Positions 27,275 through 64,000 of a stretch of 64,000 nucleotides of DNA are shown here, piece after piece. A program made the position numbers and the translations under genes. Source of the DNA: Thermoleophilia bacterium (lineage in GTDB: Bacteria > Actinomycetota > Thermoleophilia > BMS3ABIN01); assembly GCA_020053595.1 (NCBI GenBank), contig JAGVMV010000006.1, positions 49,325-113,324 on the forward strand, written 5' to 3'. The stretch's first letter is position 1. The number at the start of each line of letters is the position of its first letter. The notes under the pieces were generated by a model. That model did not search any database. It was given only the letters and a program-made list of their open reading frames with translations, and had not been told where the DNA came from.

Positions 27275-27535
27275 TGACCTCGTAGAAGACATCCCTGCTA
27301 ATCAGATATATTTAGCCGGCACCCCTTGCATTTGAAAAAACTATTCTGATATTCTTGCTCACAGAGGTGTGACTGGCGTTCAGTGGATAACCACTCGGGA
27401 GCATCTCCGCTGGTGTCAAAAAAACCAGCCGATTGGCCGGACGCCTGGGCCTCCAGATAGCTTGGATGGCTTGGGTGTTTTTTCATCCCCGGAGCCTTCA
27501 ACCGGACTGTTCGCCGTTGTCAGAAAGGGAATAAA

Positions 27536-30500
27536 ATGGCCGATCTACCTCATCACGAAATCATCGCGGAAAGCGGCCCCCTGGTCAAACTTTTCATCGA
27601 TGGCCGCCGTTTGCAGGTCAACCCCCGCATGACCATCCTGGAAGCCGCGCACGCGAACAGCATCGAGATACCTACCCTTTGCAATGACCCCCGTCTCGCG
27701 CCCGTCGGCAATTGTGGCCTGTGCCTGGTGGAGGTCGTCGAAACCGGCCTGGTGTACGCCTGTCAGACCCCCGTGGCCGAAGGCATGGAGGTCACCACCC
27801 TTAACCCGGAGATCGCCGAGGCGCGCAAACAAAGACTCACCGAGTATCTGACCAGCCACAACGCCTATTGTGAACCGCCCTGCCATAACGCGTGCCCGGC
27901 GCGCATCGATATTCCCGCCTACCTGGCGGCGATCGCCCGGGGGGATGACGCCGAAGCGATCAGGATCATCAAGCACCGGCTGCCATTGCCGCGCATAATC
28001 GGCCGGGTTTGCCCGCGCCCCTGCGAGAGCGCCTGCCGCCGTACCCAGGTTGATCAGGAACCGGTTGCCATCTGTCAGCTGAAGCGTTTCGCCAGCGACA
28101 GCGTCAGCGCCGCCGGCTCCGCGAGCATTGAAGAGCCCGCCGCATCCAGCGGCAAAAAAGTCGCCGTCATCGGCAGCGGCCCATCCGGCCTCTCCGCCGC
28201 CTATTACCTGGCTTTGAGCGGCCACCAGGTCACTATCTTCGAAGCTCATTCAGAACCAGGCGGTATGATGCTGACCGGTATTCCGCCCTACCGCCTGCCG
28301 CGGGAGATCATCCAGGCGGAAGTCGAAGACATCCTTAAAACCGGTGTCGAATTGAAGCTGAACAGCCGCTTCGGCAAAGATATTACTTTCGAAAGCCTGG
28401 AGTCCGATGGCTACGCGGCTACTCATCTGGCCATCGGCGCCCAACGGGGCTCGACCGGTGGTATCCCCGATGCAGGAGAGGGACAGGGCATCTATTCCGC
28501 CGTCGATTTTCTCCACAAAAGCAACGCCGGGCTATGGGACGCTCCCCTGGGCAAAACGCTGGTCGTGGGCGGTGGTTTCACCGCCCTGGATGCCTGCCGG
28601 TCTTCAATCCGGCTAGGCGCCGATGAAGTCACCGTGGTCTACCGCCGCTCCCGTAAAGAGATGCCGGCGACCGCGGACGAGGTCGAGGAGGCCGAACTGG
28701 AGGGCGTCAGGCTTTCGCTGCTCACCGCGCCGATCTCTGTTGTCCGCGAAGACGGCAAGGTAACCGGTGTCGTTTGTCAGACGATGGAGCTGGGCGAGCC
28801 CGACGACAGCGGCAGACGCCGCCCCGAAGCAGTGGAGGGTTCCGAGTTCACCATCGAGGCGGATACGGTCATCCTGGCCATCGGCCAGGAGGTCGACCAG
28901 TTCGGACTGGAAGACTCTCTGGATCTGAGCGGTTGGGGCACCATCGAGGCCAACCAGCGCACTCTGGCGACCAGCAGGGATGGAATTTTTGCCGGGGGCG
29001 ACTGCGAAACCGGCCCGGCTACAGTCGTTGAAGCCATCGCCGCCGGCCGCAGGGCCGCGGTTGCCATCGATGCATATATTAACGGCAAGGACCCCGATGA
29101 AGCCTGCTCAGCTCCCTCGGCCAGCCTCAAAAGACGCCGGCCGAAGCTGTTCGACATCGGCGCCAGGCCGCTTTCCGATGATAAACGGATCCATATGCCC
29201 GAACTCGCCATCGCCGACCGTGACAACTTCGATGAGATCGAGCTGGGTTTCGAGGAGAAGGCCGCCAGGAAAGAGGCCGCCCGCTGCCTGCAGTGTACCT
29301 GCCATGCTGTTTCCGCCTGCGAGCTGCAGCGCCTTTCCATCCGTTATGGCGCCGGCACCACCGAGTTTAAGGGCGAGGGCCAATATGAGCTTTACGATGG
29401 CTCGCCCATACTCCAGCTGGACCGCAAACGCTGCATCAAGTGCCACAACTGCGTCCGCATCTGCAACGAGCTGGAAATGAACAATGTTTACAGGGTAGAT
29501 GAAAATGGACATCCCGCCCTGCGGGGGAAAACCTATAAAGATTCCGGCTGCGTTTCGTGCGGACAATGCATCGACGTCTGCCCGACCGGCGCTCTGGTCA
29601 ACACTCAGCTGAAGGGTGTCCGTGAATGGGAGCTGGAAAGGGTGAGGACGACCTGCCCGCTCTGCGGCACCGGCTGTAATTTCGATCTGAACGTCAAGGA
29701 GGGCAGGGTCGTCGGGGTTACCACCAATGCGGATTCTCCGGTCAATAACCGCGCCCTCTGCGTCAAGGGCCGATATCACTCGGACTTGGTCCACAGCCCC
29801 GATCGCCTCACCACGCCGCTGGTCAGGAAAAACGGCAAGCTCGAGGAATCCACCTGGGATGAAGCCCTGGGCCTGGTGGCCTCGAGGCTTCAGGAGATAA
29901 AAGACCGGGACGGCGGCGATGCTTTCGCCGCCCTGAGTTCGGCCCGCTGTACCAACGAGGAAAACTGGGTGATGCAGAAATTTGTGAGGGCGGTGATGGG
30001 CACCAACAATCTCGACCATTGTGCCCGCACCTGACACGCTCCCACCGTGGCCGGTCTGGCCATATCGTTCGGCAGCGGAGCAATGACGAATTCCATCAAC
30101 GAAGTGGGATTCTACGACGCCCTGCTCATCATCGGCTCCAACGCCACCGAAGCGCATCCCATTATCGGGGGCAAGATGAAGCGTGCCGCGAGGCGCGGAG
30201 CCAGGATAATAGTGGCCGACCCCCGTCATGTAGAACTGGTCGATTACGCCGAGATCTGGCTGCGGCTCACCCCCGGCACTGACGCCGCGCTGGTCAACGG
30301 CATGATCAACATAATCATCAATGAAGGCTGGGCCGACCAGGAGTTCATGGAGGAGCGCTGCGAAGGTTACGACGCACTCTGGGAAGTCGTGCAGAAGTAT
30401 ACGCCGGCGATGGTCAGTGAAATCACCGGCGTCCCCGAGGACCAGCTCTACGCGGCGGCCGAGATTTATGCGCAGACGCCGAGGGCGGGCATCTTCTACA

Positions 30501-41249: not shown

Positions 41250-42467
41250 ATGACGGGTGTTGAGATCAAACCTGACATCTATTGGGTGGGAGCAATAGAT
41301 TGGGCGGTGCGCGACTTCCATGGTTATGTCACCCCCAAAGGCACGACATATAACAACTACCTGATCGTCGATGACCAGATCACCCTGGTCGACACGGTGA
41401 AATACGATTTTACCGAGGTGTCGATCAAGAATGTCACCAGCAAAGTCGACCCCGCGAAAATCCATAACCTGGTCATCAACCATGTGGAAAACGACCATGT
41501 GAGCGGGCTTTGCGATTTCATGGCGCTCTGCCCGGACGCGCACATATATATAACAGAGCGGGGGAGGCAGGTCATCGAGCGGTTCTTTGACCTCTCCATC
41601 TGGGATGTGAATGTGGTCAAGACCGGCGATAAGCTGAAACTGGGCAAGTACACACTGCAGTTCATCGAGACGCCGATGCTGCACTGGCCGGACTCGATGA
41701 TGACCTATGTGGAGGAGGCCAGCCTGCTGATCTCCCAGGATGCCTTCGGGCAGCACCTGGCCACCAGCGTCAGGTTCGACGACGATTTCATCACCTGCGC
41801 TTCCCATTCCGCCCTGGAAGAGTCGGTCATCGATTATTACGCCAACATCCTGATGCCCTTCGGCCAGCTGATCAAGTCGAAGATCAAGGCGATCCAGGAA
41901 ATGGGCATCCCCATCGACATGATCGCGCCGGACCACGGTCTTATCTGGCGTGGAGAGCCGGGCCGGGTCATGCAGATGTACCTGGACATGGCCAATGGCA
42001 AGGCCGACCTCGCCGTGGCCATCATTTACGACACCATGTGGAAGAGCACGCAGGTCATGACCGAGCCGCTGGTCCAGGGGATTATCGACGAGGGCGTCGA
42101 CTGCAAGGTGATTAAGCTCAGGGAGACGCCGATGAGCGCGGCTATCACCGATTTCTGGAAGTCACGGGGCTGCCTGGTCGGCTCACCTACGCTGAACAAC
42201 GAAGTCTTTCCCTCGGTAGCCCAGTTCATGACCCATTTGCGGGGCTTGCGGCCCAAGGACCGGGTAGTCGGGGCGTTCGGCAGCTACGGCTGGGGCGGCG
42301 GCGCCGTCAAATGGCTCTACGGCCAGTTCGGGGATATGAAGCTGGAAGCCGTCGAGGGTGGGGTAGAGGTGAAATACAAGCCGTCGCCGGAGGAGATGCA
42401 GCAGTGTTACGAGTATGGCCGGGCGTTCGCGAAAAAGGTCCGCGAGTACCACGAGCAGTACAAATAA
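41250..42467 (+). CDS. fprA: flavodiiron protein (FprA-type O2/NO reductase)
   Basis: Metallo-beta-lactamase-like diiron domain (H-x-E-x-D-H: NHVENDHVSG) plus a C-terminal flavodoxin domain. Confidence 0.9.
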   Translation: MTGVEIKPDIYWVGAIDWAVRDFHGYVTPKGTTYNNYLIVDDQITLVDTVKYDFTEVSIKNVTSKVDPAKIHNLVINHVENDHVSGLCDFMALCPDAHIYITERGRQVIERFFDLSIWDVNVVKTGDKLKLGKYTLQFIETPMLHWPDSMMTYVEEASLLISQDAFGQHLATSVRFDDDFITCASHSALEESVIDYYANILMPFGQLIKSKIKAIQEMGIPIDMIAPDHGLIWRGEPGRVMQMYLDMANGKADLAVAIIYDTMWKSTQVMTEPLVQGIIDEGVDCKVIKLRETPMSAAITDFWKSRGCLVGSPTLNNEVFPSVAQFMTHLRGLRPKDRVVGAFGSYGWGGGAVKWLYGQFGDMKLEAVEGGVEVKYKPSPEEMQQCYEYGRAFAKKVREYHEQYK

Positions 42468-43688: not shown

Positions 43689-45473
43689 CTAGAGCTTGAC
43701 CGGCTTGGCGCATTTCGGACAGAAAACGGCATCCGCCGGCAAGGGCGTTGCGCAGTAAGCGCAGAAATGATGCTCCTCTGCAGCGCCCCCGGCTTCGCCC
43801 TCTTCTACCTTCTCTGGCGCCGGGGCTTCCTGAGGCTCTTCTTTTTCCACGGCCGGCGCTGGCGGTTCCGGAGCCGGTTCGGGCTCTGCCGGCGTCGGGG
43901 GTGTGATCGTTTCAGTTACGGGAGCGGGCGGTTCGGTGGCCGCGGGTGGCTCAGGTGTGGGCGGCGCCGGCTGTGCTGGCGGTACCACTGGGACGGGTTT
44001 GGCCGCTGGCCGTGGTGTCTGTGCAGCGGCAGGCGCCGGCGGCGCGACTTGCCCTGGCCCGGTTTTTGATTTGTTCTTGGGCTTGATTACAAGAATGAAC
44101 ACCAGTCCGATAGCCGCGGCTATCACGATCAACACCACGATAATCATCAGCCACATCGGCACGGGGAAGGTCGACTTGTCGAGACCTTCGTTGATTTTCG
44201 CGGTACAGAGAGCGATCTGGTCGGTTACGTATGGAAATGCCGGGCTGGATTCGGAAACCTGCTTGAACTTGTCCTTGGCGGCGCTGTAGTGCTCTTCCAG
44301 GGCCAGGTCCACACCTTCATGATATGTCTTTGTCAGGGGACCTTCCGTTGGAGTGACGTTGCTCTCGGTCAGAAACTGTTTTATTACGGTCGTCGGAATT
44401 GCGAAGTTGAAGCCCTGGACTTCATCGTAACCGCCGGTTGTGGTGTTCTGCTGAACACTGCCGAAGGTCGTGATGCCGATGACCTCGCCACGGGTGTTGA
44501 ACAGCGGGCCGCCACTGTTGCCGTGGGTTATGGATGTGTCGGTCTGGAGAACCTCCCAGCCTCCCTGCATTGTTTTGCGTCCGCTGATGCTGCCAACGGT
44601 GAGTGACGGCTTTATGTTTTCTTCTGATTCCTTGATAAGTGGATTGAAGGTCGCGACACCCGGATAGCCGAGGGCTATCGCCTGCTCGCCATCCTTGACC
44701 GTGGTATCATCGCCGAGTTTGACTGTTGGCAGGTTGTTGGCATTGATCTTGAGAACAGCCACATCCTTGCCCGGGACCTGCTCTCCAACCTTGATCAGCT
44801 CGGCGGGTGATCCTTTCTGGATTGTACCCAATCCGGCTACAGCGACACCCATAAGCACCTGGCTTTCAGACGACTGATTGCTCAAGGTCAGGTACTGGGC
44901 GTAGGCCGTAGCAAGCGCGTCGGACATTTTCTTGGCCTGATCTTCGCTAAGCTTGAAGCCCAGCCCGGTTTCGAGGTCGGCGATATCAGCTTCGACGAGG
45001 TCGCTTAAACCTATCAACGCCATGGACTGTTTCATCTCGGCGTCGGTCATCTTGACGACGTGGGCATTGGTGATCACATAGCCGTCAGGAGTAATGATAA
45101 ATCCTGTGCCTGAGGCACCTGTCTGTACGGGTAGGGAACGCTTACCCGCGCCGGGGATAATATAAAGCTGGGGGTTGTTCAGGAGCTCGCTGAGCACCGC
45201 GCCGAGTATCTGGTCCTCGGATGTAATCTGACCCGCGACCACCATGCCAAGAATTTTATCCGTCAACGCCTGTTCGTTGATCGCCAGATCGGCGACCGTC
45301 ACATCCGCTTTCCAGAGCGTCTCGATGTAGACGGTTCCCGGTTTGTTGTACTCGGCGATCTTTGGCGGATCCAGGGTCTTGGCCTGTTCGGGACCGCATC
45401 CTGTGATCAACATCAGAGAGCTTAAAACAAAAACGACAAGAAATAGTATTGACCCCCGCGCCCGGTTGGACAT
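43689..45473 (-). CDS. lipoprotein trypsin-like (S1) serine protease with one TM helix, a Pro-rich cytoplasmic tail and a C-terminal zinc ribbon
   Basis: LITGC lipobox, His (TNAHVV) and Ser (GNSGGP) catalytic motifs, a TM helix (MWLMIIVVLIVIAAAIGLVFILVI), a ~90-aa P/A/E-rich segment and CAYCATPL...CPKCAKP. Confidence 0.8.
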   Translation of the reverse strand: MSNRARGSILFLVVFVLSSLMLITGCGPEQAKTLDPPKIAEYNKPGTVYIETLWKADVTVADLAINEQALTDKILGMVVAGQITSEDQILGAVLSELLNNPQLYIIPGAGKRSLPVQTGASGTGFIITPDGYVITNAHVVKMTDAEMKQSMALIGLSDLVEADIADLETGLGFKLSEDQAKKMSDALATAYAQYLTLSNQSSESQVLMGVAVAGLGTIQKGSPAELIKVGEQVPGKDVAVLKINANNLPTVKLGDDTTVKDGEQAIALGYPGVATFNPLIKESEENIKPSLTVGSISGRKTMQGGWEVLQTDTSITHGNSGGPLFNTRGEVIGITTFGSVQQNTTTGGYDEVQGFNFAIPTTVIKQFLTESNVTPTEGPLTKTYHEGVDLALEEHYSAAKDKFKQVSESSPAFPYVTDQIALCTAKINEGLDKSTFPVPMWLMIIVVLIVIAAAIGLVFILVIKPKNKSKTGPGQVAPPAPAAAQTPRPAAKPVPVVPPAQPAPPTPEPPAATEPPAPVTETITPPTPAEPEPAPEPPAPAVEKEEPQEAPAPEKVEEGEAGGAAEEHHFCAYCATPLPADAVFCPKCAKPVKL

Positions 45474-51806: not shown

Positions 51807-54449
<2,643 letters not shown>

Positions 54450-54528: not shown

Positions 54529-54726
54529 TTATTGCCGAGCCGTCTGGATCTCGATGCGCTTGGGCTCATCCCCGGTTATTTTGCCGTTATCTTTTTTGAC
54601 CGTGATCCTGGGATCCCAGGCATGGTTGCCACCGCTGCGCGACGGGAGTGCTGGAGTGAACCATGACTGCGGATTACCGAAATAATGCCAGAATCGGCGC
54701 GCTGGTGTTTTCAGAACAAGTGCCAT
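54529..54726 (-). CDS. hypothetical small protein (65 aa) upstream of clpB
   Basis: ATG preceded by GGAAGGAG. No recognisable family. Support comes only from the SD sequence and the open frame. Confidence 0.3.
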   Translation of the reverse strand: MALVLKTPARRFWHYFGNPQSWFTPALPSRSGGNHAWDPRITVKKDNGKITGDEPKRIEIQTARQ

Positions 54727-54897
54727 TTCGTATCGCTCCTTCCAGAATTACCCTTTGACAGGTAAATTCAGCTCTATTTTAAAGGAAAACACAATAATCT
54801 TCCAATTTTCTATATAGGAAATCTAATACGGTTAGACTTAGATTGATGAGAAAGGATTCAGGCGAGGGTCTTCCAAACAAGGTAACGGCCGACGGGG

Positions 54898-56034
54898 CTA
54901 GTACCGCAGCCGCGCCACAATATGCCCCGCCTCGACAATGGCCGGATGGCCCAGGGGGATTGTCTTAACAGCGGCGTCCTGCCTGACCGCCAGCTCCCTG
55001 GCTTCCGCGACTACATCGTTGACCTTGTCCACATCTTCACCGCAAGAAGGGCAGCTTTGTTCCGCGAACTCCAGAGTGTTGCAGGCCGGGCAATACCTGC
55101 CGGGTTGCGTGAAGCCGTTTTCGACCAGCAACAGGTCGACGCGCCGCTGGTTGAGGACTGCCAGCACGTCGTCGAGTCCGCCGACGTAGGTCCTTCCGGA
55201 TTTCAGTTCAGGACCGAGGGATTCCAGCAGGCTGGTTTCCTCCTGAAGCCGCAGCCGTTCCTCGATGGCCGTGACTTTGGACATTATCTCGTCTGATGAC
55301 GCGTCGATCTTCACTGGGAACCTCCCAGCCAGGCGTTCTTTCAGGTACGGGTGCAGGACTCGCTCCAGTTCCGGCCAGAGCTCATCGGCGACTCCGACGA
55401 CCAGGCGGTCAAAATGCTCCTTGCGGAAATAATCCAGGGTTGCCTCGGATGCTTTTTTGAGGTGGTTGCGCACCTCCAGTTCGTGGCGCCGCTGCAGCTT
55501 TGTCTGTTCCCAGCCGCCCTGGTTGTGATGCTTGAGTACCTGGTCGAGGATCTCGGTCTGTTCGCTGATCTCGCCGGCATTGGCCTGGAAGATGCGAGCC
55601 TTCTCTTTGCTGGTTACCAGAACGCAGAGCTGCTGATAACTGGAAAGGGTTTCGATGAGCGGGGCTACCTGCGGTTTCCAGTCCACGAAGAGGTGGTTCT
55701 CGATCGGGACTTTCAGCGGATTGACCTGCCAGAGACCCTCGGCCTTACAAGCGAAGATGACCAGCCCGCGGGCGCCGTTGCGGCGGAACTCGAGGTTGAC
55801 AAACTCGCCGATGGCGCTGAGTTCCAGGTCGAGCCCGCCCTGCTGATCGCGAGTGAGCTCCAGCTGCCCGGCGGCGGCCTTGCGGGCCTTGCTCGTCAGG
55901 TAGCTGAGTTCAGTCTCGTAATCGGCCCGCGTCGGATAAGCGGTTCCGTCCACATTCAGGTAGAGGCTGACGACCGGTTGCTGGTCGTGGCTGGCGAATC
56001 CCCGCAGGGAAGAAAGTTCTGAAGCAGTAAGCAT
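54898..56034 (-). CDS. eRF1/Pelota-like (bacterial baeRF1-type) protein with a C-terminal CxxC...CxxC zinc ribbon
   Basis: Central VLVTSKEKARIF...NQGGW region is reminiscent of the eRF1 domain-2 fold. C-terminal CPACNTLEFAEQSCPSCG. Start placed at the Met with an AAGGTGGT SD (56034); the track starts at 56085. Confidence 0.55.
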   Translation of the reverse strand: MLTASELSSLRGFASHDQQPVVSLYLNVDGTAYPTRADYETELSYLTSKARKAAAGQLELTRDQQGGLDLELSAIGEFVNLEFRRNGARGLVIFACKAEGLWQVNPLKVPIENHLFVDWKPQVAPLIETLSSYQQLCVLVTSKEKARIFQANAGEISEQTEILDQVLKHHNQGGWEQTKLQRRHELEVRNHLKKASEATLDYFRKEHFDRLVVGVADELWPELERVLHPYLKERLAGRFPVKIDASSDEIMSKVTAIEERLRLQEETSLLESLGPELKSGRTYVGGLDDVLAVLNQRRVDLLLVENGFTQPGRYCPACNTLEFAEQSCPSCGEDVDKVNDVVAEARELAVRQDAAVKTIPLGHPAIVEAGHIVARLRY

Positions 56035-56129
56035 TTTCGTACCACCTTGCTCGGGATAAAGGTCAGGGATGCACACTGTTCTCATACCCGGACAGCGAAA
56101 AAAATATCATGCGGGTAATTACTGATGTT

Positions 56130-56975
56130 TCAGGAAAAAAGAGGAGGCGTTTCCAGCGCGCCCTCGAGCCTCAAGAGCTCACGCAGGGCGGCCAGGCCGA
56201 TAGCCATTTTATCTTCGGTGGGCTCCGAGGTGGTAACCAGGTTTTGCAGCTCGCTGCCTGGCAGGGTCAGCACTTTCGACCAGAGGCTCTTCGGGTTGCG
56301 GGAGGCCCATTGCACCAGCTCGATGGCGCCGGAGAGACTGAGGACGCTGACGCCCAGGCGGGCCACGTTGCTGCGCCGCCCCAGCACCCGTTGGGCCATG
56401 GTGTTGCCGACGGTCATCAGCGCCAGGGCCGGTCCGACGATGTTGGAGCCGCAGCGCGGGTGCTCGGCCCGGGCTTTACTCGCCCTGACCGGGTCGAGGC
56501 TTCCGGAAGCTTCATAGCCGTTGATTGACTTATGTTCCGCTGCATGGTATTCGGTCGCCTGCGAGCGCCGCAGCGCCACCAGTGATGGAACAATCGCCAG
56601 CGCCGCGACCAGCACTTCTTCCATCAGGGGCGAGAGCTTGCGCTTGGGATTCTTGACGGCAATCGAACCGGCGACACTGACGATCATCGAGGCGATTACC
56701 TCGGGTGAGCGGGACATGATCGGCAACTGCCCGCCATGGGCGCTCGCTCTGGGCAGCACCATCGCCGACTCGGCCAGGCTGACCAGGCCTCTGAGGAGCG
56801 GGATCTTCCGCATGCGCGTCAGGCCGAGGCTCATCTTGTCGCCCGAGGCGATTCTGATCTCGCTGCCCGGTTCGCGCAGGGCCATGGCCCAGTGTTTCTC
56901 CGTCTGGAACATGACGCCGTTTTCCAGGGCCATGCCGCCGATCTTCAAATGTTTTTGCCTGCCAGCTGTTTCCAT
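56130..56975 (-). CDS. DUF1385 (YqhQ-like) family protein
   Basis: GGMALENGVMF, KIPLLRGL, YHAAEHKSINGYE and HPRCGSNIVG parallel the B. subtilis YqhQ motifs. Confidence 0.75.
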   Translation of the reverse strand: METAGRQKHLKIGGMALENGVMFQTEKHWAMALREPGSEIRIASGDKMSLGLTRMRKIPLLRGLVSLAESAMVLPRASAHGGQLPIMSRSPEVIASMIVSVAGSIAVKNPKRKLSPLMEEVLVAALAIVPSLVALRRSQATEYHAAEHKSINGYEASGSLDPVRASKARAEHPRCGSNIVGPALALMTVGNTMAQRVLGRRSNVARLGVSVLSLSGAIELVQWASRNPKSLWSKVLTLPGSELQNLVTTSEPTEDKMAIGLAALRELLRLEGALETPPLFS

Positions 56976-57040: not shown

Positions 57041-58288
57041 ATGACGAACAATGATCGCCTCAAATCCTTACAGGAAGAAGCGCTGGCGCTGCACGAGCAG
57101 TGGCGGGGGAAGCTGTCCATCGAAAGCAAGGTTCCGGTGGCCGACAAGCACGCGCTTTCCATCGCCTACACGCCGGGCGTGGCCGAACCCTGCCGGCGCA
57201 TTGCCGCCGATCCGGGGCTGGTGGATCTCTACACGGGCCGCTGGAACACGGTGGCGGTGGTCAGTGACGGCTCGGCGGTCCTCGGACTGGGCAATATCGG
57301 CGCCCGCGCCGCTCTGCCGGTGATGGAGGGCAAGTCGGTGCTGTTCAAGGCATTCGGCGCCGTGGACGCCTTCCCTATCTGTCTCGACAGCCAGGAAGCC
57401 GACGACATCGTGCGGACGGTGAAACTTCTGGAGCCCAGCTTCGGCGGTATCAATCTGGAGGATATCTCCGCACCCACCTGTTTTGAGGTGGAGCGGCGCC
57501 TGATCGAGGAATGCGACATCCCCGTCTTCCACGACGATCAGCACGGCACCGCGGTCGTCGTGCTGGCGGCGGCCATCAGCGCCTGCAAGGTGACCGGCCG
57601 GGCGCTTGAGGATCTGAAGATCGTTATTAACGGCGCCGGCGCGGCCGGCATCGCCATCGCCCGCATGTTCCAGTCCGCCGGGGTCAGGGAGATCATCCTC
57701 TGTGACACCAAGGGCATCATCGGCGATCACCGGGACGACCTGACGCCGGTCAAGCAGGAGGTCGCTGGCTGGACCAATCCCGAATGCCGCGAGGGCGACC
57801 TGGCGGCGGCCATGGAGGGATCCAACCTGTTCGTGGGCGTTTCGGTGAAAGACGCAGTCTCAAAAGCCATGGTGGCCTCGATGGAAGAGGACGCCATCGT
57901 CATGGCCATGGCCAATCCCGACCCGGAGATTTTGCCGGAAGACGCCCTGGCCGCCGGAGCCGCCGTGGTTGCCACCGGCCGCAGCGATTTCCCCAACCAG
58001 GTGAACAACGTGCTGGGCTTCCCCGGAATCTTCCGTGGTGCTCTGGACGTTCGCGCCCGCGTCATCAACCATGAGATGAAAATCGCCGCCGCCCAGGCCC
58101 TGGCCGGGCTGGTCGGCGATGAACCGTCAACTGAAAACATTATCCCCGAGGCTTTCGATTTGCGCGTTGCCCCGGCCGTGGCTGCTGCCGTTGCCGGCGC
58201 CGCCGTGGATAGCGGTGTCGCCCGCGACCCGAAGACTCCAGCCGAGGTTGCCGCCTCGACCCGCCGGATGCTGGGCATCGAGGAATAG
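57041..58288 (+). CDS. NAD(P)-dependent malic enzyme (short form)
   Basis: Malic enzyme N-terminal (AYTPGVA) and NAD-binding (GAGAAGIAIA) motifs, about 415 aa. Confidence 0.9.
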   Translation: MTNNDRLKSLQEEALALHEQWRGKLSIESKVPVADKHALSIAYTPGVAEPCRRIAADPGLVDLYTGRWNTVAVVSDGSAVLGLGNIGARAALPVMEGKSVLFKAFGAVDAFPICLDSQEADDIVRTVKLLEPSFGGINLEDISAPTCFEVERRLIEECDIPVFHDDQHGTAVVVLAAAISACKVTGRALEDLKIVINGAGAAGIAIARMFQSAGVREIILCDTKGIIGDHRDDLTPVKQEVAGWTNPECREGDLAAAMEGSNLFVGVSVKDAVSKAMVASMEEDAIVMAMANPDPEILPEDALAAGAAVVATGRSDFPNQVNNVLGFPGIFRGALDVRARVINHEMKIAAAQALAGLVGDEPSTENIIPEAFDLRVAPAVAAAVAGAAVDSGVARDPKTPAEVAASTRRMLGIEE

Positions 58289-59843: not shown

Positions 59844-60037
59844 CCCTGACAATACCCACAAACGGCCTGCAATAGTGGGTCTTCGGCGAAATTGTGGGGT
59901 CTGAAGCACATCCACCATTTTCTGGTGAAAATAAATTAACGCGCCCAAACTGGAAAATCCTGAGTATATTGGTATACTATTGAAACTTCTCAGTTGAGAA
60001 TTGTTAGTTCGCCGGGCAAGGGAGCTGGTAGAAGATT

Positions 60038-60766
60038 ATGCCGAACGAAATCGTACTCGTCGTCGACGACGACCCTGAAGTTTTACACAACACCAAGGAA
60101 TGCCTTTCCAAGGTGGGTTACCGGGTGCTGACCGCGGTAGATGGTTCCGCAGCCCGGCAGATCTCGCGCGACGAGCGCCCCGACGTAATAATCCTTGATG
60201 TCGAAATGCCTGTAACCAGTGGTCTCGATATCTGCAAAACTCTCAAGGGCGACGCCAGCCTGAAGCACATCCCCGTGATCTTTTTTCACGAAAAGCCGAC
60301 CACCGATGACCAGGTAGCGGGTTTCGAGGCGGGAGCCCAGGATTATCTGGCCAAACCTTACGACCGGGAAGAACTGGTGGCGCGGGTGGGAGCCGCCGCT
60401 CGGCAGAAAGTGGCCATCGACCGGCTGCGGCACAAGAACGCCAAGCTGGAAGCGCTGGCCAAGCACGTGCGCGCCGCCGTGCAGCACTACGAGCAGCCGC
60501 GCCAGGCAGCTCCGGGGGCCATGGATTATGAAGGGGTCGAGCAGGAGGGCGGCAAGGCGATGGTCAGGCTGACCCGGCGTGAACTGGAAATTCTGCAGCT
60601 GCTGGCAAGGGGTCTGAACAACGAAGTCATCTCAAGGCAGCTTTATATCAGTCCCACAACCACGCGTAACCACATCCAGAACATCCTCGGAAAACTCGGA
60701 GTCCACAGCAAGCTGGAAGCGGTCGCCTTTGCGGTTCGCGCCGGTTATGTAGACTTTGTTGGCTAG
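60038..60766 (+). CDS. LuxR/NarL-family response regulator
   Basis: REC domain plus a C-terminal LuxR HTH (LTRRELEILQLLARGLNNEVISRQLYISPTTTRNHIQNI). Confidence 0.85.
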   Translation: MPNEIVLVVDDDPEVLHNTKECLSKVGYRVLTAVDGSAARQISRDERPDVIILDVEMPVTSGLDICKTLKGDASLKHIPVIFFHEKPTTDDQVAGFEAGAQDYLAKPYDREELVARVGAAARQKVAIDRLRHKNAKLEALAKHVRAAVQHYEQPRQAAPGAMDYEGVEQEGGKAMVRLTRRELEILQLLARGLNNEVISRQLYISPTTTRNHIQNILGKLGVHSKLEAVAFAVRAGYVDFVG

Positions 60767-60910
60767 AGAGGTTGACACAGAAGGGCTTAACACCACTCTG
60801 TGTAATTCATAAGTACTAATTATTTGAGCAAAATTCATTATAGACGGCTATGTAACATTGAGGTTATCATACTAACCAACATACTTTACTTAGTGTCATG
60901 GGCTTAATCG

Positions 60911-60965
60911 CCCCCCTTGGAAGGCCCCGATCTCAATCGGGGCTTTCTCCTTCTCGGGGGGTTTT
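60911..60965 (+). terminator. putative rho-independent terminator (plus strand)
   Basis: GGCCCCGATCTCAATCGGGGC hairpin nested in a CCCCCC...GGGGGG stem, followed by TTTT. Confidence 0.35.
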
Positions 60966-61005
60966 GGAGAAAAAGAAATCGGCGCGGGGTAGGATCCGCG
61001 CCGAT
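60961..61005 (-). terminator. putative rho-independent terminator (minus strand)
   Basis: Perfect 10-bp stem ATCGGCGCGG/CCGCGCCGAT with an 8-nt loop, followed on the minus strand by TTCTTTTTCTCC. Confidence 0.4.
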
Positions 61006-61197
61006 TACAGTTGACACCTGCTCGGAGACAGGCGTCAATTTTTTATGAACTTGTCCAGATCCAGACCGGATTTGAATAGGATGAAGGAGTGCTACTGTTC
61101 CCTAAGTGAATCTTAGGCCGCCATAAGATGTTTGTGTAGGGTCAAAGAGGGACGACTTGGGGGGCAGATGAGGACGACCTGGAGTTATGCCGCATCC

Positions 61198-61455
61198 TCA
61201 AGGCTGTTTAGTATCGAGCGCAGACGGTTCTTTTATATCCGTTGACCGGGACTCAAGCTGACGGAAGCGTTCGGTTATGCGTGCGTCGGCAAATTCATGT
61301 AGTCGTCTGTCGATAGCGTGTATTTCTGCACCCAGCTTATGTACCAGTGAATGCAGCTGTTTATGGGTCTCCGCCGACATCTGCTCCCGCTGGTGGACCA
61401 TACCGGGTTCGAACCACCAGCTTATTTCATATACAAAATGGTGGAGGCGGTGCAA
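61198..61455 (-). CDS. hypothetical protein (85 aa)
   Basis: Open frame with a downstream minus-strand terminator at about 60961-61005. No recognisable family. Confidence 0.3.
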   Translation of the reverse strand: MHRLHHFVYEISWWFEPGMVHQREQMSAETHKQLHSLVHKLGAEIHAIDRRLHEFADARITERFRQLESRSTDIKEPSALDTKQP

Positions 61456-61513
61456 CGCTATTCGAACTCTGAGCTTAATATTCTAAGCCGGTTGGAACAG
61501 ATTGTTAATCAGA

Positions 61514-62437
61514 TTATTCTTCCGTGAAATAGTCCATATCTATTTTTTTCACATTGTATGAAGCCACTGTAGACACGCCCACGTCGAAATCGATCATTAG
61601 CTCCGCTAGGTCATCGCCATCTATCAGAACGATCTTACTTTCAATCCCGGAAACATACTCTCGGGCGCCCTTGGTAAATGAAGATGTGGTAATGAAAATT
61701 CCCTTACGCGCCCTATGGCCCTGCAAGGCGCCAGCAAATTTTTGTATCTCGGGCCTGCTGACGGAATTCTCCCATCTCTTGGCCTGAATATATACATTAT
61801 CCAAACCCAATTTATCTTCTTTGATGATGCCGTCAATTCCACCGTCGGCACTCTTACCAACAGCCCTGCCAGCATCCTGTCGTGAGCCACCGTATCCCAT
61901 CTTGACAATCAGTTCGACGACCAGTTGCTCGAAAAATCTTGGTGAGCAATTTTTAATGGTAAGGAGTATTTCATTTTCGAGATCGTTCTTTATACGTCTA
62001 TGTGCTACCTCCATTGATTCTTCTGGCGTCCTGCCGGTTTTCTCTTCGAGCTCATCGGAAAGGTCGTCTACTTCCTTCTTTTTACTCCTGGACTCTTCAT
62101 ATTCAGGAAATTGCTTTAGGAATTTTATGTCGATTCTCAGTGGCGCCTGATTAACAACATCTTTGCCACGGTCTGTGATCCTGAAAACTCCCCTTTTTGG
62201 CGAACTTAAGAGACCGGCCATCTTCATATGAGCTTTTGCCCAAGCGACCCGGTTATCAAAAGTTGCCTGCCGGCCGCTGGGCAACATCTCCTGCCTGTCC
62301 GCCTCGCTCAGGGAAAATTCCTCAGCTAATGCCTCCACTGTTTCACGCGGAGTATGCTCCTTGCTATCACTCACAAACGTCAGCAACGGCAACATCAGGT
62401 CCTGAAAAGCTGGGATTGCCATTTCGTCCTTCGCCAC
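61514..62437 (-). CDS. mrr: Mrr-like type IV restriction endonuclease (Mrr_N winged helix + Mrr_cat)
   Basis: C-terminal PD-(D/E)xK Mrr_cat motifs (DGIIKEDKLGLDNVYIQAKRW) and an N-terminal Mrr_N domain. Confidence 0.8.
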   Translation of the reverse strand: MAKDEMAIPAFQDLMLPLLTFVSDSKEHTPRETVEALAEEFSLSEADRQEMLPSGRQATFDNRVAWAKAHMKMAGLLSSPKRGVFRITDRGKDVVNQAPLRIDIKFLKQFPEYEESRSKKKEVDDLSDELEEKTGRTPEESMEVAHRRIKNDLENEILLTIKNCSPRFFEQLVVELIVKMGYGGSRQDAGRAVGKSADGGIDGIIKEDKLGLDNVYIQAKRWENSVSRPEIQKFAGALQGHRARKGIFITTSSFTKGAREYVSGIESKIVLIDGDDLAELMIDFDVGVSTVASYNVKKIDMDYFTEE

Positions 62438-62608
62438 TCAATCAAGTCTCTTAGAAAATTTGTCTCCAAGAAAATCGGGGTTTAAATTTCTTTTGATCTC
62501 TGCCTTTTCCGCCTTGCGCTCCCGCTTATTGGCGACGCGCTTCCAGTCGCGTAGATGCTTCCACCATTGGGGCGCAGGAGTTAGTTGTCCTTTTCGCTTA
62601 TGAGCCAT
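62438..62608 (-). CDS. small basic ORF (56 aa, Lys/Arg-rich) immediately upstream of mrr
   Basis: MAHKRKGQLTPAPQWWKHLRDWKRVANKRERKAEKAEIKRNLNPDFLGDKFSKRLD. Its stop abuts the mrr start. Weak RBS. Confidence 0.25.
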   Translation of the reverse strand: MAHKRKGQLTPAPQWWKHLRDWKRVANKRERKAEKAEIKRNLNPDFLGDKFSKRLD

Positions 62609-62757
62609 TGGTTTTGTCCGCGATATCTTTCGCCGTAATTATTCTTGCGCGTGCTCCAGTATTTGTCAGGCTTGCAGAGTGCGCAGCTTGAGTAATATCG
62701 TCTGTGTTATTTCTTGTGGTTCGCCATGGATTAAACACTCAGAGTCTTTTCCACGCT

Positions 62758-63090
62758 TTAGGATTCTTTTCTTTGCTTCGCGCTGTGACTGCGGCCATCT
62801 AGCGCAGATGGATGAAGTAATCTTTCGCCACGCATGACATAGAGGATATAGACCTGCGAACCCTCTTCCCGGTAAAAGATTCGACATGGTTGTTCAATAA
62901 TCTGTCTATAGCGCCATCCCTTAAGCTCGCGTGGCTTTGAGCCGCTTTTGGGATGATCAGCCAATTGCTCCACGTGCCGAAACACGTTCTGGACCAGCTT
63001 CCTGGCCGCTTCTGGATTGTCCAGCGCGATGTAATCCGCGATAGCATCCAAATCGGAGAGTGCTGGTTCAGTCCAGACTATTTCAGCCAT
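62758..63090 (-). CDS. parE: ParE/RelE-family type II toxin
   Basis: 110 aa, ParE-like (IVWTEPALSDLDAIADYIALDNPEAARKL...YRIFY). Overlaps the upstream antitoxin gene by 13 nt. Confidence 0.8.
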   Translation of the reverse strand: MAEIVWTEPALSDLDAIADYIALDNPEAARKLVQNVFRHVEQLADHPKSGSKPRELKGWRYRQIIEQPCRIFYREEGSQVYILYVMRGERLLHPSALDGRSHSAKQRKES

Positions 63091-63335
63091 CGAGCCATGC
63101 GCTTTTTGGCCTGCGCATGAGAGAGTGTACGGCCTTCCTCAATAGCCCTCTCTCCACGGGCGATTCCCTCCAGCAGGCTCATCCGGCGGTGAAGGGCCTC
63201 ATAAGTCTCGACATCCACCAGATAGGCGCTTGGTACACCGTGTTGGGTTATGAGGATTGGCTCCTTGCTTTGCTCCAGCTCTGAGAGAAGCCTGGTGGCT
63301 TGGCGCTTGAGTGATGTAACAATTTCGGTCCGCAT
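63078..63335 (-). CDS. Phd/YefM-family antitoxin
   Basis: 85 aa, with the YefM-like ILITQHGVPSAYLVDVETYEAL motif. Confidence 0.8.
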   Translation of the reverse strand: MRTEIVTSLKRQATRLLSELEQSKEPILITQHGVPSAYLVDVETYEALHRRMSLLEGIARGERAIEEGRTLSHAQAKKRMARWLK

Positions 63336-63473
63336 AAAGTGATACTAAAGTATCACCGTTGGTTTTGCAAGTGGCAAGTTTCCGAAAGACGTGAAAGTTC
63401 AATTCCCGCCTGCTGTTACGATATCGGACAACAAAAAATGCCTTAAACAAGGCATTTTTAGAGTTACGAACAA

Positions 63474-63549
63474 TGGTGGAGGATACCGGACTCGAACCGG
63501 TGACCTCCTGGATGCAAACCAGGCGCTCTCCCAACTGAGCTAATCCCCC
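63474..63549 (-). tRNA. tRNA-Ala (anticodon TGC)
   Basis: Reverse complement GGGGGATTAGCTCAGTTGGGAGAGCGCCTGGTTTGCATCCAGGAGGTCACCGGTTCGAGTCCGGTATCCTCCACCA. Cloverleaf folds, G3:U70 is present and CCA is encoded. Confidence 0.9.
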
Positions 63550-63575
63550 ATATGAATCGTCGCTCTATAAAAAAC

Positions 63576-63651
63576 TGGTGGAGGATACCGGACTCGAACC
63601 GGTGACCTCTTGCATGCGAAGCAAGCGCTCTCCCAACTGAGCTAATCCCCC
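63576..63651 (-). tRNA. tRNA-Ala (anticodon CGC)
   Basis: Same body as the neighbouring tRNA-Ala, with anticodon loop TTCGCAT and G3:U70. Confidence 0.9.
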
Positions 63652-63694
63652 ACGCGGGCGCCGTGGTCTTCCGACCACCGGCGATGAGGCGATG

Positions 63695-63771
63695 TGGTGG
63701 GCGATACTGGACTCGAACCAGTGACCTCCGCCATGTGAGGACGGCGCTCTAACCAGCTGAGCTAATCGCCC
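63695..63771 (-). tRNA. tRNA-Val (anticodon CAC)
   Basis: Reverse complement GGGCGATTAGCTCAGCTGGTTAGAGCGCCGTCCTCACATGGCGGAGGTCACTGGTTCGAGTCCAGTATCGCCCACCA. Cloverleaf folds and the anticodon loop is CTCACAT. Confidence 0.85.
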
Positions 63772-63826
63772 GCGTGTCCACCAAAGGTATTTTAGGTACG
63801 CCAGGGCTGCAAGGCAAGGCGATGGT

Positions 63827-64000
63827 TTATTCCCCGAAATCCTCCGGATGGTCCTGCCGCAGCTTCTCAGCCTGGTTGCGCAGGGTTTCCGATTCGCCGT
63901 TCAGCCTTTCGATGTTCTGCTGGACCGAATAAATCTGTTTGACGACTGCCTGGGTTTTGATCTCGTCCCACCCCGCCAGCGAGTACTGTTCTTTCTGAAG
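63827..64000 (-). CDS. C-terminal end of an unidentified protein (coiled-coil-like), truncated by window edge
   Basis: Open frame ending ...LRNQAEKLRQDHPEDFGE* and continuing beyond position 64000. Confidence 0.35.
   Translation of the reverse strand, partial: LQKEQYSLAGWDEIKTQAVVKQIYSVQQNIERLNGESETLRNQAEKLRQDHPEDFGE

Follow-up and report, generated by a model that had tools for sequence, protein, structure and literature searches.

A Balon-family baeRF-1 gene with a conserved GGWxQ loop and a zinc ribbon, next to a DUF1385 gene in a Thermoleophilia stress-gene cluster

Ribosome hibernation of the Balon type was found only in 2024, and the members of the family studied so far are all loop-degenerate. 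Balon itself, Msmeg1130 and Rv2629 all act as hibernation factors of the ribosome; for Msmeg1130, both a structure on the ribosome and an inhibitory effect on translation have been published (PMC10901736). Here we analyse a gene of this family in a 64,000-nucleotide (nt) stretch of a Thermoleophilia bacterium genome (contig JAGVMV010000006.1; hereafter the window). It encodes a protein of bacterial aeRF1 (baeRF-1) family 10, termed baeRF10 below, and lies directly downstream of a gene for a DUF1385 (YqhQ-like) protein. An earlier note on this DNA stated that neither family has an established role, which is outdated for the baeRF proteins in view of the hibernation factors named above; for DUF1385 and yqhQ, our literature search found nothing functional.

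A family 10 baeRF-1 protein with an aeRF1 fold

The encoded protein belongs to baeRF-1 family 10, the family that includes the mycobacterial Balon homologue Msmeg1130. It matches the Pfam model PF18854 (baeRF_family10) with 97.4 bits against a gathering cutoff of 27.1 (E 1e-27), and Msmeg1130, whose sequence was rebuilt from a printed alignment for this scoring, matches the same model with 124.7 bits. Secondary Pfam matches to acVLRF1, other baeRF families, Host_attach and zinc-ribbon models are weak. Both acVLRF1 tests fall below cutoff (PF18859, 23.9 against 27.1 bits; NF041024, 14.8 against 125 bits), as does the classical aRF1/eRF1 model TIGR03676 (38.6 against 234.7 bits). A search of PDB sequences with the single protein returns Balon Msmeg1130, and a search with a profile of 32 family members (alignment A1, which also underlies the AlphaFold model) returns Msmeg1130 over its full length (E 2e-30), followed by aRF1 (E 3e-15), eRF1, Rv2629 and Pelota.

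The AlphaFold 2 model of the protein (predicted local distance difference test, pLDDT, 88.4; predicted template modelling score, pTM, 0.81) places it among the same relatives. The top Foldseek match is ribosome-bound Msmeg1130 (8v9l_z; template modelling score, TM, 0.84); Rv2629 (TM 0.75), Balon of P. urativorans (0.69) and eRF1 (about 0.5) come further down, with aRF1 also among the next matches. The three-domain aeRF1 order, N, M (RNase H-like) and C (Pelota-type), is present in the model, in the full-length Foldseek matches and in the full-length profile alignment to aRF1 (4af1). A release-factor/Pelota-like character had been read from the sequence in the earlier note. The eRF1-like fold bears out the first half of that description in the Pfam, PDB and Foldseek results, and the second half is not supported: Pelota chains rank 29th or lower in Foldseek with TM 0.24-0.41 (about 0.3), and the N domain of the model is of the alpha/beta eRF1 type, as against the Sm-like beta-barrel that marks Pelota/Dom34. 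At the tip of the N-domain helical hairpin, the NIKS motif is replaced by LELT, both in the profile alignment with 4af1 and in the model, so that stop-codon reading in the manner of aRF1 is unlikely.

The elements of the gene to which we refer below are the following.

54898..56034, minus strand: baeRF-1 family 10 (Balon-family) gene, 378 residues, three-domain aeRF1 architecture (Pfam, homologue lengths, AlphaFold 2 model, Foldseek)
55042..55092, minus strand: C4 zinc ribbon CPAC-x9-CPSC, an insert of the C-terminal domain (translation)
55489..55530, minus strand: tip loop of the M domain, HHNQGGWEQTKLQR, at the position of the eRF1 GGQ loop (translation, profile alignment)
56042..56048, minus strand: Shine-Dalgarno sequence AAGGTGG, 7 nt 5' of the ATG at 56034 (sequence; GAGGTG or AAGGTG is kept in orthologous spacers)

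The open reading frame at this position, 54898..56085 on the minus strand, would encode 395 residues. Nearly all of the homologues (n=69) are 377-380 residues long and start at the equivalent of Met17 of that frame; the closest of them are 94-96% identical, and some carry the NCBI name of a Thermoleophilia metagenome-assembled genome (MAG) protein. The start at 56085 was rejected, having no Shine-Dalgarno sequence and lying ahead of the point equivalent to 56034 at which homologues begin. The homologue lengths and the AAGGTGG before 56034 thus set the real gene at 54898..56034, and the extent given in the earlier note, with about 380 residues, proves right at 378.

In profile alignments, the two glycines of the M-domain loop pair with the GG of GGQ in aRF1 (4af1) and in human eRF1. 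The position of the catalytic glutamine holds a tryptophan (GGW), and a conserved glutamine, Gln177, follows two residues later; Msmeg1130 reads AGQ at the aligned site. Loops of the HHxQGGW(E/S)Q type are carried by 39 of 81 family members drawn from species-level genomes, from Thermoleophilia, Solirubrobacterales and Anaerolineae. Within these 39, H170, Q172, G173, G174, Q177, Q181 and R182 are each at least 90% conserved, with the motif in register. The residue before the glutamine is Glu or Lys in the clade of the window, and the relatives in Solirubrobacterales and Anaerolineae have GGWSQ or GGWAQ. The remaining family members, mostly from Acidimicrobiia, have unrelated and variable loops. 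The predicted structure gives low pLDDT to loop residues 163-173, and a long helix follows them.

The zinc ribbon lies at the position of the cysteine-containing C-domain insert of aRF1 (4af1), where Msmeg1130 is free of cysteines (profile alignments), and its four cysteines are nearly invariant in alignment A1. A two-strand insert at this site was suggested by Burroughs and Aravind to be possibly a degenerate zinc ribbon (PMC6514570), and the beta-hairpin of Balon is described as its contact with EF-Tu (PMC10901736); we take the two to be the same element. The earlier proposal of a baeRF1-type protein with a zinc ribbon and a loop, NQGGW, equivalent to GGQ therefore agrees with the family 10 assignment, the PDB match, the Foldseek result and the alignment of the loop glycines. 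The ribbon itself is real and C-terminal as described, with a spacing of x9 in place of the x13 given.

Family 10 loci of Acidimicrobiia (L020-L090, for example L030 2798-3982 and L076 5995-8071) have lost the GGWxQ loop, and many of them keep the zinc ribbon. The gene is flanked there by an ArsA ATPase fused to an HSP20-like domain, with a small AF_1253 protein, and by a ROK kinase. A tandem baeRF paralogue that had seemed to be present in these loci was rejected as an artefact of single-linkage clustering; the downstream gene is the ROK kinase.

Stress genes, transcription signals and the adjoining DUF1385 gene

On either side of baeRF10, and in the spacer before it, the window contains the following features.

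51807..54449, minus strand: clpB disaggregase gene, 880 residues, downstream of baeRF10 (open reading frame and translation; ClpB Pfam domains at the same position in relatives)
54529..54726, minus strand: hsp20 remnant, 65 residues, with the alpha-crystallin core lost in frame (tblastn against the Hsp20 of relative L001)
56084..56109, minus strand: promoter-like bipartite motif TGATA-N15-GGGTAT in the spacer between DUF1385 and baeRF10 (aligned orthologous spacers)
56130..56975, minus strand: divergent DUF1385 (YqhQ-like) gene, 281 residues, 5' of baeRF10 (Pfam E 2e-21)
56448-56465, minus strand: EHPRCG motif in DUF1385
56529-56549, minus strand: YHAAEHK motif in DUF1385

The baeRF10 gene sits in a heat-shock gene cluster, which fits the published context of Balon genes, reported in stress operons with Hsp20 and chaperones (PMC10901736). 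The clpB gene is present in all nine loci of the clade, defined here by baeRF10 proteins at least 50% identical to that of the window, and it also adjoins the family 10 gene, in another gene order, in the distant loci L047 and L058, whose proteins are 30-33% identical. Down to 50% identity the order is fixed: response regulator, fumarase, malic enzyme, DUF1385, baeRF10, often hsp20, often a protease, and clpB. The hsp20 remnant carries a strong ribosome-binding site; its residues 1-50 match the Hsp20 of L001 (tblastn E 5e-16) and its last nine correspond to Hsp20 residues 134-142. Relatives L001 and L005 have an intact hsp20 at this position, and the remnant could be either a real deletion or an assembly collapse. 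The protease, which in L003, L005 and L007 lies between baeRF10/hsp20 and clpB, is trypsin-like.

Several details of this neighbourhood may be recorded in their own right. In the window, the same trypsin-like protease, with a C-terminal zinc ribbon, is encoded at 43689-45473 (minus strand), some 6 kb beyond clpB. In the two distant loci, from actinobacterial MAGs, clpB is directly upstream of the family 10 gene (L047 2648-5215, L058 624-5780), as in L058 is hsp20. The AT-rich spacer before the hsp20 remnant and clpB (54776-54812, minus strand) contains a sigma-70-like TTGGAA-18-TAAAAT and an imperfect palindrome, TTTCCTATATAGAAAA, which could be a heat-shock operator.

DUF1385 and baeRF10 are separated by 95 nt in the window (95-212 nt in the clade), and the spacer probably provides baeRF10 with a promoter of its own. 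The motif TGATA-N15-GGGTAT has its sole strict match within the 64-kb window here, and of 12 independent clade loci, nine have a relaxed form, KGRWH-N15-16-GGGWAH, lying 72-159 nt upstream of the start codon; such matches have a background rate of 0.024 per 260 nt, a generous figure, the motif having been derived from the same sequences. GGGTAT is what we take to be the -10 element of general-stress promoters of the sigB/sigF type in Firmicutes and Actinobacteria, and the spacer element accordingly suggests a stress promoter for baeRF10. A terminator scan found no minus-strand terminator between or after DUF1385 and baeRF10, and read-through from DUF1385 into baeRF10 is therefore possible. No Rfam family was matched within the locus or close to it. 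The only other intergenic match to the relaxed motif in the window lies at 41138-41164 (plus strand), 86 nt upstream of a 405-residue open reading frame at 41250-42467.

That the neighbour on the minus strand encodes a DUF1385 protein, as the earlier note proposed, is confirmed by Pfam (PF07136, 76.8 bits against a gathering cutoff of 22.1), with only the C-terminal half of the model, positions 99-225, covered. The protein retains the invariant GGxA...G, YHxAEHK, EHxRCG and TTxEP motifs. It has one clear and two weak hydrophobic segments, as against at least four strong ones in canonical proteins, and may be only peripherally membrane-bound, or soluble, where the earlier note called it membrane-associated; it is a short, divergent and weakly hydrophobic variant. 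Its sequence points to a helical, weakly membrane-like protein with a metal-site-like HxxEH and HxRCG signature.

The context of DUF1385 was surveyed from both directions. In a species-level genome scan of 80 family 10 loci, with a hidden Markov model (HMM) search for DUF1385, the gene lies directly upstream of baeRF10 in 9/9 clade loci and within 6 kb in 0/71 of the others. Relatives of the DUF1385 protein at 38% identity adjoin no release-factor-like gene. For either family the next-nearest relatives are only about 37-41% identical, so that the pair is the mark of a single Thermoleophilia-like clade, to which the pairing is limited. The conserved pairing considered in the earlier note thus exists among close species-level loci and fails as a property of the family. 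The whole block is syntenic in the clade, so adjacency alone is no proof of coupling.

For the second direction, canonical DUF1385 proteins (300-320 residues) were drawn from a representative search and then used to scan metagenome contigs. In gene order, 80 diverse loci (L091-L170; GC 28-68%, median pairwise identity 46%) read rho, rpmE, DUF1385, prmC, prfA, often then sua5. Of the 59 whose downstream flank reaches 1 kb or more, 51 have prmC or prfA immediately after DUF1385. This arrangement amounts to a strong general link of DUF1385 to RF1 and its glutamine methyltransferase. The 80 canonical loci are free of baeRF10, as the window and the clade loci are of prmC, prfA and sua5. DUF1385 is thus linked to release-factor-type proteins in two unrelated ways, and the literature that we searched mentions neither a DUF1385-RF1/prmC nor a DUF1385-baeRF10 link.

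Two further observations concern these arrays. A malic enzyme gene (57041-58288, plus strand) divergently adjoins DUF1385 in the clade of the window, and in 12 canonical loci (including L097, L120, L130, L143, L146 and L169) one also precedes the rho-rpmE-DUF1385 array in divergent orientation; this placement could be an ancestral remnant or a coincidence. A rho gene 3 kb upstream of baeRF10 in three Anaerolineales loci was considered as a link and rejected, the intervening genes (an M23 peptidase, a DUF72 protein and a radical SAM protein) being unrelated.

Elsewhere in the window, a ZMP/ZTP riboswitch (Rfam RF01750, 53 bits) lies at 27359-27457 (plus strand), upstream of an 832-residue open reading frame at 27536-30034. 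The lower-GC stretch 60000-64000 (GC content 0.51) is probably a small island next to tRNA genes: it encodes an Mrr-type restriction endonuclease (61514-62437) and a ParE/Phd toxin-antitoxin pair (62758-63335), together with three tRNAs, Ala-tgc, Ala-cgc and Val-cac (63474-63771).

Hibernation, peptide release and a possible partner

By homology with relatives solved by cryo-electron microscopy, the protein very probably binds the ribosomal A site. We favour the reading that it does so as a stress-induced passive hibernation factor, at a probability of roughly 0.55 for the full mechanism, because the sole characterised relatives are of the Balon type and the gene has a stress context. Heat or general stress, to which the promoter motif and the neighbouring genes point, would switch on transcription of baeRF10 from a separate stress-sigma-type promoter, located in the 95-nt spacer. 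Shaped like a tRNA, the three-domain protein would then dock with the 70S ribosome in its A site, the N domain, without NIKS, at the decoding centre, the M-domain loop reaching towards the peptidyl-transferase centre and the C domain facing the factor-binding site. A ribosome so occupied would be parked and protected while ClpB, in relatives together with Hsp20 and the trypsin-like protease, handles damaged protein.

Several observations weigh against passive hibernation. Judged by sequence, the protein is a distant relative of Msmeg1130, about 18% identical, and the three NCBIfam hibernation-factor families tested (MSMEG_1130, AOC03_06830, which is Balon, and Rv2629; models NF052288, NF052287 and NF052289) give 57.7 against a cutoff of 480, 41.5 against 330 and 24.9 against 320 bits. 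The zinc ribbon stands where Balon has its EF-Tu-contacting beta-hairpin, and no counterpart of Balon's lasso loop, bL27 trap or HP motif could be assigned in the protein, the text of the Balon paper giving no residue numbers. The baeRF-1 families that are read as non-catalytic have been described as possessing catalytic loops with little conservation and without constraint on length, and family 10, which keeps a conserved glutamine, was singled out by Burroughs and Aravind as the baeRF-1 family likeliest to be an active hydrolase (PMC6514570); in the window protein, the M-domain loop ranks among the two best-conserved blocks. We regard an alternative as possible, if doubtful: a stress-induced, catalytically active peptidyl-tRNA hydrolase, that is, a ribosome rescue factor, whose GGW(E/S)Q loop would put Gln177 in the peptidyl-transferase centre and free nascent chains from heat- or damage-stalled ribosomes. 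The model for it is the set of proposals made for the GGxSQ/GxuQ loops described in the aVLRF-1, acVLRF-1 and Vms1 families (PMC6514570), a pattern matched by the GGWSQ and GGWAQ of relatives, less so by the window clade, in which Glu or Lys rather than Ser or Ala precedes the glutamine. The constraint on seven loop residues in 39 of 81 members across three bacterial classes, and the loss of the motif in sister groups within Acidimicrobiia, which suggests two functional classes within the family, argue for activity, as do the alignment of the loop glycines with those of GGQ, the retained zinc ribbon, and the weak secondary matches to acVLRF1 and, for one relative, to eRF1_2. A neighbouring protease and disaggregase would also suit the clearing of released, incomplete chains. 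What tells against a hydrolase is that the canonical glutamine position is occupied by tryptophan, with Gln177 two residues on, and that the sole characterised members of the Pfam family (Msmeg1130, AGQ) are hibernation factors, which maintain the catalytic centre in an inert state (PMC10901736).

Passive hibernation and peptide release are alike compatible with a further proposal, that DUF1385 and the release-factor-like protein form a functional pair in which DUF1385 acts as a metal-dependent, membrane-associated modifier, regulator or anchor. On this proposal RF1 and PrmC would be the partners of DUF1385 in most bacteria, and the divergent copy of the clade would have switched to an aeRF1-type factor. 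The canonical gene order in diverse loci, with prmC or prfA as the next gene in 51 of 59, speaks for it. So does the occupation of the slot after DUF1385 by baeRF10 in 9/9 species-level loci and in L001 and L005, over 50-96% protein identity, with both families marking the same clade; an unrelated gene would rarely be expected beside release-factor folds in two independent arrangements. Yet the clade block is syntenic throughout and the adjacency could be inherited order; DUF1385 is absent within 6 kb from the 71 other family 10 loci; its relatives at 38% identity are not beside release-factor genes; the spacer of 95-212 nt has its own conserved promoter-like motif; and rho-rpmE-prfA is a housekeeping cluster, membership of which need not mean common function. 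We regard a functional pair, too, as possible but doubtful. The earlier note had also raised a role in conflict systems, and baeRF-1 pathways have indeed been proposed as a response to ribosome-targeting effectors (PMC6514570), with an Mrr nuclease and a ParE/Phd pair only 5-7 kb away here. That the two genes belong to a mobile conflict or anti-phage system targeting or rescuing ribosomes is nonetheless barely credible: PADLOC defence models match neither baeRF10 nor the DUF1385 protein, the locus keeps stable synteny with central-metabolism and chaperone genes across the clade, its base composition is ordinary, the lower-GC island beginning only beyond 60 kb, and the Mrr and toxin-antitoxin genes are absent from orthologous loci.

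The family of the protein and its kind of function are thus already known; the protein itself is a variant in which ancestral aRF1 features persist, and its neighbour is unexplained but suggestive. The GGWxQ subgroup retains two such features, the constrained Gly-Gly-x-x-Gln loop and the zinc ribbon, and is for that reason a natural subgroup in which to ask whether some bacterial aeRF1 homologues still release peptides; it is also a natural place to ask how the EF-Tu interface was remodelled. DUF1385 is widespread and has no known function or solved relative, and its place ahead of prmC-prfA in most lineages, and of an aeRF1-type gene here, gives a testable lead to translation termination or rescue. 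The boldest combination strikes us as quite improbable: DUF1385 would serve glutamine-loop release-factor-type proteins as a dedicated, metal-dependent partner, with RF1 and PrmC in that place in most bacteria and an archaeal-type factor in this clade, and the GGWxQ zinc-ribbon baeRF10 would be an active peptide-release or rescue factor of archaeal ancestry that acts on bacterial ribosomes in heat stress. If so, this form of baeRF10 would represent a living intermediate linking aRF1 to the non-catalytic Balon.

Comparison with known systems

Compared with canonical DUF1385/YqhQ, the window copy shares the motifs GGxAxxxGV, YH(G/A)AEHK, HxRCG(T/S) and LQxxxTTxEP and a helical architecture. It differs in being shorter (281 residues against 300-320), in being only about 23% identical, and in being followed by baeRF10 rather than prmC-prfA.

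With the Balon-type factors Msmeg1130, Rv2629 and P. urativorans Balon (PDB 8v9j/8v9l, 8v9k and 8rd8), the window protein has in common the Pfam family of Msmeg1130, the three-domain aeRF1 architecture (TM 0.84), the absence of NIKS and a place among stress genes (hsp20, clpB). It departs from them in its strictly conserved HHxQGGW(E/S)Q loop, in the C4 zinc ribbon that replaces the EF-Tu-contacting beta-hairpin, in an identity of about 18% with scores far below the NCBIfam equivalog cutoffs, and in a locus at which no raiA or hpf neighbour is seen.

The aVLRF-1, acVLRF-1 and Vms1 proteins, predicted or shown to be peptidyl-tRNA hydrolases, share with it the G-G-x-x-Q spacing, and it gives weak matches to the acVLRF1 HMMs. 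Unlike acVLRF-1, it keeps the N- and C-terminal aeRF1 domains, and its GGWEQ has Glu where a small residue precedes the glutamine in those families. Finally, although aRF1 and eRF1 have GGQ where the window protein has GGW and NIKS where it has LELT, and although TIGR03676 scores it below cutoff, it resembles them in fold, in domain order, in the aligned glycines of the loop, in the positively charged helix that follows the loop, and in a zinc-ribbon-type insert that enters the C domain where that of aRF1 (4af1) does.

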